Below are positions 27,153 to 28,504 of a stretch of DNA of 64,000 bases, in pieces. A model generated the notes under the pieces. It was not told where the DNA came from. It saw only the letters and a program-made list of their open reading frames with translations, and did not search any database. The first letter of the stretch is position 1. Every line of letters begins with the position of its first letter. Where the stretch lies: the NCBI GenBank assembly GCA_004022145.1, contig RCNU01000009.1, one strand, 5' to 3'. The position numbers and the translations under genes are program-made. The DNA is from Paecilomyces variotii. Taxonomy: Eukaryota.

Positions 27153-28069
27153 ATGTTTGCGTCGCCAGATTTAAAGCCGAATCAGACGATTGCACGCACC
27201 CTGAACCCTGAGTGGGACCCAGCAAACCCGTCGAGGTCGTCGAAGTACTTGCTGAGAGAGTTTATCCATGATGGGATCCCATTCCGGGGTCTATTTGATA
27301 TACTCGGCCTTTTTCTCTCCTCGATCGGATTGCCCCTAGCAGTGCCACAACACGCAGCTTCTACCTACCACTCACTGCCATGTATTCTAAGTGGTGTACG
27401 ACTCTTGGCAATCTCAAACCAACAATGTTTAATTGCACGTGGATCGCAACAGGGCAAGACCAAGGCCGCTTCTTCTTGGGCGCGTCCCTCAAAGGATACA
27501 GTGCGCTGTTAACAATTGGAACATGGGCGTCAGTGGTGAAGGCAGCGCGGTTCTCCTTGATTGATGATGAGGCGATGGCAATGAGCGGGTACACGATGAA
27601 CGATTGCCCCGAGATGAGGCTCACCGGGAACCGTATTGCGTTCGGAAATTGTGCAAAAACATACCCTTTTCTTCATATACTGAAGTAAGTTCATCTCTCA
27701 AAGTTTTGGCGCAGAGTGACCTTTTTTGAAAGGTAAAGCTAACCAGATAGGCGCACTGACCCTGCAACCGTCCATGGAATCGCCTTACACGTACGAGGCG
27801 TGATTCCACCAGCATATGAGGATAACTCGTCTGGAGAAGTCTGGACCAATGTGAGGAGATTGTGTGCCAACTGTCAAGAGCTAGTTCGTATGTGGGGAGG
27901 AAATATCGCGAACTTCGAGCAAAGTAGAGTGCATAATCTGGTACAAAAAGAAACCATTCAAGACTGGTCAGCCAACTCAGTTGGATCGAAAAGACAAGGG
28001 ATAACCTCCCTACGCAGATCTCGAAGTCCTCGCTCAGCAATAACAGTAGTAATGTCATACAGATCTTGA
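27153..28069 (+). pseudogene. Zn-dependent deaminase-fold (CAE...CxxC) gene, frameshifted, with putative catalytic Glu replaced by Lys
   Basis: A frameshift near 27330-27336 joins ...LFDILGLFLSSIG to SATTRSFYLPLTAMYSKWC; RFFLGAS; FGNCAKTYPF (AAA at 27656-27658); intron 27685-27750; HGIAL; RRLCANCQELV. Confidence 0.6.
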
Positions 28070-28504
28070 GAAATTATTTCAGCAAGGACATCAGATACGC
28101 GCTCCCAGAGATAGAATTTGTCGCCCGATTGGAAAATCACCATCAGGGAATCCATATGTTCCATTATCGGCCTCGCTGGTGCAAGGCCATGACATCGAGC
28201 AAAAACCTGGCCCTCAGAGTTATAATCCGCCCAGTCGGCTTTATACCCGGGACTTCGAGGATTCGTGGTCCACCCCGGAGGGACGATAAACTAGTAAAGA
28301 GATCTTAGTGACTTCACTCAACCGGGCAGGGAGCTAGGATGTCCTTACTGGTGGCAGGGTAGCGTTCTTGACGGGCGGCTCTGTAGTAGACGCGGACTTA
28401 GAAGGGGCGAGAACCTAACAAGGAGATATAAGCGACATTCTCAAGCGAGTAGGGAAGTGAGATGTCCTCACAGGTGCCAGGGTGGTAGTTTCAGCGGGCA
28501 GCAT
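27958..28504 (-). CDS. Small hypothetical protein (~143 aa, 3 exons) with a SUKH/US22-like pattern
   Basis: Exons 28504-28472, 28414-28349 and 28290-27958 with GT-AG introns give an intact frame: ...FIVPPGWTTNP...HGLAPARPIMEHMDSLMVIFQSGDKFYLWERVSDVLAEIISQDLYDITTVIAERGLRDL... The fold assignment is inference. Confidence 0.7.

Follow-up and report, generated by a model that had tools for sequence, protein, structure and literature searches.

A dead gene with deaminase-like motifs and its intact convergent neighbour in Paecilomyces variotii belong to linked protein families and may be the remnant of a toxin–immunity-like module

Does an intact gene that overlaps the tail of a ruined one belong with it, and what would the two have formed together? 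The question is raised by a locus of the fungus Paecilomyces variotii, analysed here within a stretch of 64,000 nucleotides (the window; GenBank assembly GCA_004022145.1, contig RCNU01000009.1; positions are counted from its first letter). At this locus, a degraded gene on the + strand (27054-28072, the plus gene) and an intact gene on the - strand (28504-27958, the minus gene) lie tail to tail. A preliminary description, made from the letters alone, had read them as a fungal toxin–immunity pair, namely a dead zinc-deaminase-like gene and an intact SUKH/US22-like gene. Our analysis partly supported this interpretation. The families of the two genes are linked, because three proteins of the plus family carry a fused C-terminal domain like the minus protein. 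As for the further reading, in which a two-part module resembling a bacterial deaminase toxin with its SUKH-type immunity protein left this locus as its remnant, we consider the case for and against it evenly balanced.

The link emerged when a profile of the minus family was compared with 150 representatives of the plus family. The profile matched the C-terminal extensions of P0149 (residues 346-452, E = 5.2e-5) and P0137 (residues 379-476, E = 2.4e-3), scoring 19.4 and 14.9 bits, against a maximum of 6.8 bits in 1000 shuffles of these extensions. The extensions also matched six minus proteins co-linearly in BLASTP (E values as low as 2.8e-5), and P0127 was added as a third fused protein once the profile had been widened (E = 3.4e-15). 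Using hhalign, the minus alignment matched the three extensions with a probability of 90.4% (E = 1.4e-6, 83 columns), compared to 66% and 14% against single sequences. The six stand-alone minus proteins also aligned on the fused domain in MAFFT, with no variation across the nine sequences in eight columns (PP-x-GW, W, A...GL, F, K-x-YLW). G-N-C-[AG]-E, the first motif discussed below, is present in all three fused proteins, and the second is P-C-x-N-C in two of them and L-C-G-P-C in the third. The three fused proteins fall in a single clade (support 0.95), distinct from that of P0010 and its neighbours, the clade most similar to the window copy. One branch of the family shows the link as fused domains and another as convergent neighbours, and the preliminary description's view of the two genes as a pair is borne out, at the level of their families, by the three fusions beyond this locus.

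Fifty plus family representatives are complete past the CxxC motif; six of these have C-terminal extensions of at least 60 residues, and the minus-like domain occurs in three of the six. Long C-terminal extensions were also seen in P0077 (885 residues, extension 558) and P0120 (413 residues, extension 141). Neither extension matched the minus domain or any Pfam family, and both may carry other partner domains. The stand-alone minus proteins begin with a Pro/Ser/Thr-rich leader similar to the linker found in the fused ones, and inversion of a segment holding the C-terminal domain would yield the tail-to-tail layout of the window. When the two parts of P0149 were docked (residues 1-335 against 362-470; ESMFold2, family alignments not used), the score was 0.58, compared to 0.16 for the best of three controls; the docking mark was reached by 51/78 solved complexes and 2/108 mismatched pairs, and at scores of 0.60 or below only 5 of those 78 complexes attained it, as did all 4 passing mismatches (of 180). 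The docking runs share at least 47% of contacts, with a predicted local distance difference test score (pLDDT) of at least 77 for the partner. This constitutes weak support, as the predicted contact is between two parts of one chain from another organism and not between the proteins of the window.

Turning to the plus family itself, a phmmer search with the middle piece of the plus gene against 1.84 billion representative sequences returned 205 proteins at E <= 1e-3, which takes the motifs of this gene beyond a chance resemblance; of the 205, 77 passed E <= 1e-10 and 6 passed E <= 1e-30. Family members are ~300 residues long, no Pfam model matches them, and their nearest Atlas clusters are mostly from Ascomycota. 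An N-terminal helical region is followed by P-x-G...P-x-Q-x-I-x-R...NP-x-W, DLLG-x-FLS, NFYLPLTA-x-Y-x-WC and QCTW, then by FFLGAS, W...ARF, FGNCAETYPF, hGlAL, PCxNCxxLI and NF, and the chains stop 15-25 residues past CxxC. Conservation was counted in an hmmalign alignment of 150 listed representatives out of the 205, using the numbering of the intact relative P0018 and, as denominators, the sequences covering each column. The glutamate of C-A-E, E239, is found in 132/135 (Lys is confined to P0008, P0010 and P0091), C237 in 132/135 and G235 in 132/134. Retention of this glutamate by homologues was a check named in the preliminary description, and the outcome favours it. In the second motif, C288 is found in 49/49, C291 in 47/49 and P287 in 43/49 sequences. 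A fourth conserved cysteine, C149, is present in 120/131, and R201 in 139/143. One of the three best Atlas feature-matches of P0018 (0.95, 213/256 features) was a cluster of 127 proteins of ~388 residues, mostly from Chordata, which could represent animal relatives of the plus family or contamination.

Measured against these relatives, the plus gene is a degraded family copy, with Lys for Glu, Leu for Pro, two or more frame breaks and the N-terminal domain lost. Positions 1 to ~69 of the family profile were not found anywhere in the window by hmmsearch or tblastn. Positions 70-132 matched at 27150-27335 (frame 3), 131-261 at 27329-27685 (frame 2) and 265-323 at 27752-27916. All pieces are on the + strand. 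Upstream of these matches, a first exon remnant, with its boundary read by eye, encodes MVNEIQML and two bases of a Cys codon (27054-27079), corresponding to ...RIEILELC in P0011 and MLC in P0010; an in-frame TAG (27033-27035) closes the frame just upstream. A putative 53-nt intron (27080-27132, GTAAGG...CTAAC...AG), likewise placed by eye, follows. Relatives read ...EILELCPPTGKQF, MLCPPDGSTF or SPPDGAIFAAP at the junction of exons 1 and 2, and splicing in the window likewise gives ...ML + CPPDG. Comparison with P0010, P0011 and P0041 identified the next piece, CPPDGKYY (27133-27158, frame 2), which ends in the first frame break (~27152-27158), where the window has 25 bases against seven codons in relatives (G to LKPNQ). 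Because of this break, the ATG at 27153 is not the ancestral start, it is an accident of the break.

A frame-3 segment (FASPDLKPNQTIARTLNPEW...DILGLFLSSIG, 27156-27329) then extends to the second frame break (27330-27331), where two bases stand against one codon in relatives. Tblastn and hmmsearch with relatives pass here from frame 3 (to 27329) to frame 2 (from 27332). The close relative P0041 is unbroken at both frame changes (SPPDGAIFAAPTLKPNQ... and ...LFLSSISLAPSSATTR...). The frame-2 segment (APSSATTRSFYLPLTAMYSKWC...FGNCAKTYPFLHIL(K), 27332-27684) holds the annotated start of P0008 and encodes FGNCAKTYPF (27641-27670), in which the codon AAA (27656-27658) places Lys at the conserved Glu of G-x-C-A-E. 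It is followed by a 66-nt intron (~27685-27750, GTAAGT...CTAAC...AG), which is used in the annotated P0008, and by the last exon (RTDPATVHGIAL...RRLCANCQELVRMWGGNIANF and the codons beyond, 27751-28072, stop codon at 28070-28072). This exon encodes RLCANC (27857-27874), so that L-C-A-N-C (27860-27874) stands where 43/49 relatives have P-C-x-x-C. The frame then runs on for ~50 codons past ...ANF, beyond the end of most relatives, and it is this run-on that produces the 115-nt overlap with the minus gene's coding sequence (27958-28072, tail to tail). Both motifs, the AAA at 27656 in place of a catalytic-type GAA and the tail-to-tail overlap had been reported in the preliminary description and are upheld. 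Its single frameshift at ~27333 and single intron correspond to the second break and the 66-nt intron, although there was a further break to find at ~27152-27158. Its picture of a toxin broken twice beside an intact partner is right about the partner but understates the decay of the plus gene.

The plus strand pieces are 99-100% identical to C8Q69DRAFT_473596 (P0008, 207 residues), the annotation of strain CBS 101075, which runs from MYSKWC to 28072 and includes the run-on codons. The nearest relatives of the window copy (P0010, P0009, P0041 and P0115) also look damaged, at differing sites. P0010 (243 residues), the nearest full-length relative, has an open frame, a nine-residue gap that removes the C-A-E triplet, and L-C-A-N-C; P0009 diverges from the family just before the motif, and P0041 after FFLGAS. 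This suggests repeated decay of the branch, or gene-calling artefacts. A Glu-to-Lys change ancestral to P0008 and P0010 is not claimed, since the closer relative P0009 diverges before the motif and the order of events is unreadable. The P. variotii enzyme gene is dead.

Was this enzyme a deaminase? The label rests on motifs and on an order of helices and strands that match the published description of the YwqJ clade, and is positional and not statistical. The AlphaFold2 (AF2) model of P0018 (pLDDT 93.7, predicted template modelling score 0.93) places a helix at 134-152, strands at 159-167 and 173-178, a helical insert at 179-236, a helix at 240-247 directly after C237-A-E239, a strand at 255-263, an insert at 264-287 and a helix at 289-297 after P-C288, with the chain ending at 310. 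These elements follow one another as in the deaminase fold (helix 1, strand 1, strand 2, helix 2, strand 3, helix 3), which here stops after helix 3. The [H/C]xE motif of the deaminase superfamily, at the start of helix 2, is kept by the family and not by the window copy (C-A-K); PCxxC, at the start of helix 3 and one strand after helix 2, is also kept by the family and reads L-C-A-N-C in the window. In Table 1 of Iyer 2011 (PMC3239186), the YwqJ clade is characterised by Gx[CH]xE, by an insert that follows strand 3 and precedes CxxC, and by a chain truncated after helix 3 or strand 4, with SUKH3 and Imm6 as immunity proteins; the link between CAE-type YwqJ deaminases and SUKH proteins that the preliminary description invoked is in print in that table. 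The YwqJ description in the same source also puts a conserved His in the insert that separates strand 2 from helix 2. Three of these four structural features are present in the plus family (Gx[CH]xE, the insert before CxxC and the end after helix 3). The sole named Atlas lead for P0018 was YwqJ-deaminase, at a weak 0.77.

A number of results weigh against the deaminase label. In the model, strand 4, helix 4 and strand 5 are absent after the CxxC helix, and no conserved His was found in the insert at 179-236, the sole His-rich alignment column being 78 (55/86), outside the insert. Pfam gave 0/48 matches at E <= 1e-3 and, when 29 members were searched at E <= 10, no relevant model (that for YwqJ-deaminase included); NCBIfam gave nothing relevant. 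The family profile reached mouse cytidine deaminase in the PDB at E ~1 only, over the PCxxC stretch, and hhalign against a single E. coli TadA gave a probability of 0.2%, again over the PCxxC stretch only. Foldseek found no PDB match to the P0018 model at E <= 1e-3 and no deaminase near the top; the best row for the full-length model was a PNGase (E = 0.41, template modelling score (TM) 0.12), with APOBEC at E = 7. The fourth cysteine, C149, could make a structural four-Cys zinc site. A scan of 185,579 bacterial and archaeal genomes for [FYW]G[NR]C[AG]ETYP returned 17 pattern matches and 0 relatives. The zinc-deaminase-like character proposed in the preliminary description is retained for the motifs, [C]xE and PCxxC, and fold and profile searches gave no significant match to a deaminase; the absence of a predicted deaminase fold, which it had named as grounds for refutation, came halfway to pass, in that the model is confident and the structure search empty. 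We also considered a transglutaminase/papain-like cysteine peptidase, given PNGase, LapG and VASH1 as top PDB rows, and rejected it (TM 0.12-0.15; His in 16/56 at column 258). The Cys-His(-Asp) catalytic residues of such peptidases are wanting, the Cys helix being followed by no conserved His.

The minus gene (27958-28504) is intact, with three exons (28504-28472, 28414-28349 and 28290-27958), two introns (28471-28415 and 28348-28291) and a product of 143 residues, exactly as the preliminary description had it. The protein is 100% identical to P0002, the P. variotii 'hypothetical protein DTO166G4_6505', and 94% identical to PVAR5_8433. Nine proteins of this family were found, known only from few Eurotiales. 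This included P. variotii (two full-length proteins and three 68-residue fragments), Aspergillus thermomutatus (one, CDV56_109384), Penicillium hispanicum (one, N7459_007083), one entry from JGI and one from ENA; proteins outside P. variotii share 43-56% identity with P0002. Within the gene (28291-28504), the end of exon 1 with intron 1 and the end of exon 2 with intron 2 represent an old tandem duplication of ~91 nt, which was unreported by Tandem Repeats Finder. Of its 91 aligned columns, 61 are identical, and both units end in ...CCCTG(G/C)CACC(T/A) before the splice site and GT(G/A)AGGACATC... after it.

Whether the minus protein is SUKH/US22-like was addressed through its AF2 model, in which a disordered Pro/Ser/Thr-rich leader (residues 1-33) precedes an alpha+beta domain of ~110 residues (pLDDT ~87-94) made of two helices, a four-stranded meander, a helix, a strand and a helix. 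The evidence that this model has a SUKH/US22-like fold is real but sub-threshold. The SUKH core, as outlined in Zhang 2011 (PMC3113570), has four helices and six strands, the latter forming a hairpin and a four-stranded meander. The model has four helices, a meander (72-78, 83-88, 91-96 and 101-105), a strand at 127-130 and, at the place of the hairpin, a two-residue bridge (40-41). Among the 50 best Foldseek rows in BFVD, 13 were nameless, 12 came from phages or giant viruses and 25 (25/37 of those named) from virus groups that carry US22 proteins, namely herpesviruses (21), iridoviruses (2), penguinpox (1) and fowl adenovirus (1). The best E value was 0.18, the top probability 0.84 and the TM up to 0.38 (normalised to 143 residues). 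The herpesvirus rows include the tegument proteins US24 and UL43, and UL29, U8, DR2, DR6, M25.1 and GP28.1, which individually we take to be US22 family members. In the survey of SUKH proteins by Zhang 2011 (PMC3113570), herpesvirus, iridovirus, pox and adenovirus groups are the ones named as carrying US22-like SUKH-5 domains. Atlas leads for the minus protein were US22 (0.89), SUKH-3 (0.87) and SMI1_KNR4 (0.87), all below the 0.9 line, with a recognition of 2086, below the mark of 2300. Its association with a putative toxin enzyme is also of the SUKH type, as the minus gene is convergent with the plus gene and its domain is fused to plus family domains in 3/150 proteins.

Here too, several searches point the other way. 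Pfam gave 0/8 matches for the minus family at E <= 10, and profile searches of the PDB gave nothing. Foldseek found no PDB match to the model at E <= 1e-3 and no SUKH chain in the 50 best rows, which did include five WWE-domain rows (probability 0.05-0.13, TM 0.16-0.17). In BFVD there were likewise no matches at E <= 1e-3, and all rows lay above E = 0.1. A motif scan for the family in the 185,579 bacterial and archaeal genomes returned 31 pattern matches and 0 relatives. The SUKH/US22-like partner of the preliminary description therefore has the sub-threshold support of the BFVD and Atlas leads but not that of any significant Pfam, PDB or Foldseek match.

If the locus is indeed the remnant of a module like that of a bacterial deaminase toxin and its immunity protein, its first part would have been a cytoplasmic protein of ~300 residues with a C-terminal core ending after the PCxxC helix. 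Judging from the motifs, three cysteines would hold zinc and the glutamate would activate water, as in truncated YwqJ-type cytidine or nucleic-acid deaminases. The second part, the SUKH/US22-like domain of ~110 residues, would bind the first and restrain or direct it, as the fusion, the analogy to SUKH proteins and, weakly, the docking suggest. Binding would occur in cis in the fused proteins and in trans between the products of separate genes. P. variotii would have lost the enzyme and kept the binder, like an orphan immunity gene. Decay of the plus gene, conserved motifs in its family, an intact partner and homology of that partner to the fused domains are what the sequences show; zinc binding, deamination, partner binding and inhibition are what we infer for these proteins. 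The distribution of the two families counts against such a module. Nine minus proteins stand against 205 plus family representatives, and since only 3/50 C-terminally complete representatives are fused, most members of the plus family work without the minus domain. Adjacency of the two genes is known from the P. variotii genome only, and the genes, being convergent, are not co-transcribed. Moreover, toxins and immunity proteins are not usually laid out with the 'immunity' domain fused covalently to its toxin.

It is possible, if doubtful, that the families are linked in a different way, the plus protein being some other zinc enzyme or a structural zinc module and the minus protein an accessory domain that binds a ligand or target (WWE-like, for example); the C-terminal domain would then have become a separate, inverted gene and the rest would have decayed. 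The fusions in 3/150 proteins fit this explanation, and inversion of a segment gives exactly the tail-to-tail layout, with a minus leader that is Pro/Ser/Thr-rich like the fused linker. The lack of any significant deaminase or SUKH match, the fourth conserved Cys and the five WWE rows among the 50 best in the PDB are also in its favour. It is less easily squared with near-invariant G-x-C-A-E and P-C-x-x-C motifs that each stand where a helix begins and are separated by one strand, the arrangement of the deaminase zinc unit, or with a feature list that fits the YwqJ description as far as Table 1 of Iyer 2011 (PMC3239186) gives it. A WWE-like partner in particular fares poorly, its probabilities of 0.05-0.13 and TM of 0.16-0.17 comparing with 0.84 and 0.38 for the viral US22-type rows.

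That the plus gene is alive, as an N-terminally shortened and inactive pseudoenzyme of 207 residues that may pair with the minus protein or act as a decoy, strikes us as distinctly unlikely. P0008 is annotated as an open frame of that length and uses the intron, and P0010 is open yet lacks the Cys-Ala-Glu triplet and has L-C-A-N-C, so inactive forms can persist. Nevertheless, P0008 begins inside helix 1 of the modelled core, ~145 residues short of its relatives, and homologous coding sequence lies upstream of it in two other frames. Its tail of ~50 codons has no counterpart in most relatives, and the close relatives P0009 and P0041 leave the family elsewhere, as decaying copies would.

The pair might also be, or have been, a selfish toxin-antidote element (a spore killer, allorecognition or addiction system) whose toxin decayed first, a proposal that we rate as improbable too. 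The enzyme half is broken, the partner intact and the families linked, and the discussion of fungal members in Iyer 2011 (PMC3239186) proposed that toxin-derived deaminases act in heterokaryon conflicts. Set against this, the locus sits between ordinary genes with no repeat or mobile-element signal noticed, most plus family members are without the minus partner domain, and no such fungal system was found in the literature. Chance neighbourhood of a pseudogene and an unrelated orphan gene is very improbable, for all that the adjacency is seen in one genome only, the genes are convergent and the surrounding 12 kb consist of unannotatable small frames, because the minus domain is fused to plus proteins in another clade of the family, which chance adjacency does not predict.

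The locus is flanked by genes for Vps41 (17425-20697) and a CP2/grainyhead-type factor (33201-34826). The ~12 kb between them (21150-33200) hold only small frames, on both strands, and Pfam gave no match to these. The GC content drops to 0.40 at 24001-26000 of the window. Tandem Repeats Finder reported 0 rows for 27000-28700, and a six-frame scan of the whole window revealed no second copy of either family. The upstream neighbour of the plus gene (25768-26982, + strand) looks like another pseudogene. Its open frames at 25768-26370, 26371-26577 and 26578-26730 abut in one frame with single stop codons between them, and a fourth piece (26755-26982) follows after an apparent intron. Its text ...FTAYTDGAFRSS*KVLAIIEVKKAP..., with a stop inside, resembles a PD-(D/E)xK nuclease motif; Pfam and PDB searches with this neighbour gave no match.

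How does the pair compare with known systems? Wtf genes in fission yeast and Spok genes in Podospora combine tightly linked poison and antidote functions, sometimes in one gene; they have no homology to the window pair, and the likeness is functional only. Fungal deaminases of bacterial-toxin origin and SUKH immunity proteins are already known, as set out in parts of Iyer 2011 (PMC3239186), Zhang 2011 (PMC3113570) and Zhang 2012. In the full-text literature we found no description of this ascomycete plus family, its minus partner or their fusion, although the supplements of the Iyer and Zhang papers may list members. In comparison to bacterial YwqJ toxins, as characterised in the relevant sections of PMC3239186, the plus family is without a Pfam YwqJ match, the insert His, and secretion or RHS/PAAR modules. 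It is also eukaryotic and intron-bearing, with an extra N-terminal helical and beta region, and its partner is fused or convergent, whereas in the bacterial systems covered there the partner is the next gene of the operon.

The OTT_1508 deaminases of fungi are alike in being fungal and intracellular, with an N-terminal alpha+beta region and a large, divergent family, and roles in conflict or mutagenesis are proposed for them in the account given by PMC3239186. They are unlike the plus family in their signature, which in the same account comprises GxxK before CxxC and an extended loop joining strand 4 to helix 4. This signature is unmet because the plus family ends after helix 3, without the elements that it needs, and the Pfam OTT_1508 model did not match the family. 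SUKH-5/US22-like proteins, to the extent of their description in PMC3113570, share with the minus protein a small alpha+beta domain, a four-stranded meander, flanking helices and a deaminase-like partner. In contrast, the minus protein gives no significant score, its N-terminal hairpin is not evident, and its family is confined to few Eurotiales plus the three fused proteins.

At its boldest, the toxin–immunity-like reading would make the plus family ascomycete YwqJ-like nucleic-acid deaminases with a US22/SUKH-like binder, either fused (self-inhibited) or split (enzyme and antidote), as a eukaryotic counterpart of polymorphic toxins for conflicts in hyphal fusion, spore killing or antiviral defence, with P. 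variotii keeping the antidote against the enzymes of other strains. We regard this extended version as unlikely. Were the module confirmed, the pairing of deaminase toxin and SUKH immunity, so far bacterial, would gain a fungal family in which it is found fused as well as split. It would also provide a testable enzyme family (205 representative clusters, no Pfam model) for heterokaryon incompatibility, spore killers, mycovirus defence and mutagenesis like repeat-induced point mutation, and the deaminase-like core, which is very short and stops after helix 3, might serve as a new scaffold. Read cautiously, the fusions still give a partner to two families of 'hypothetical protein'.

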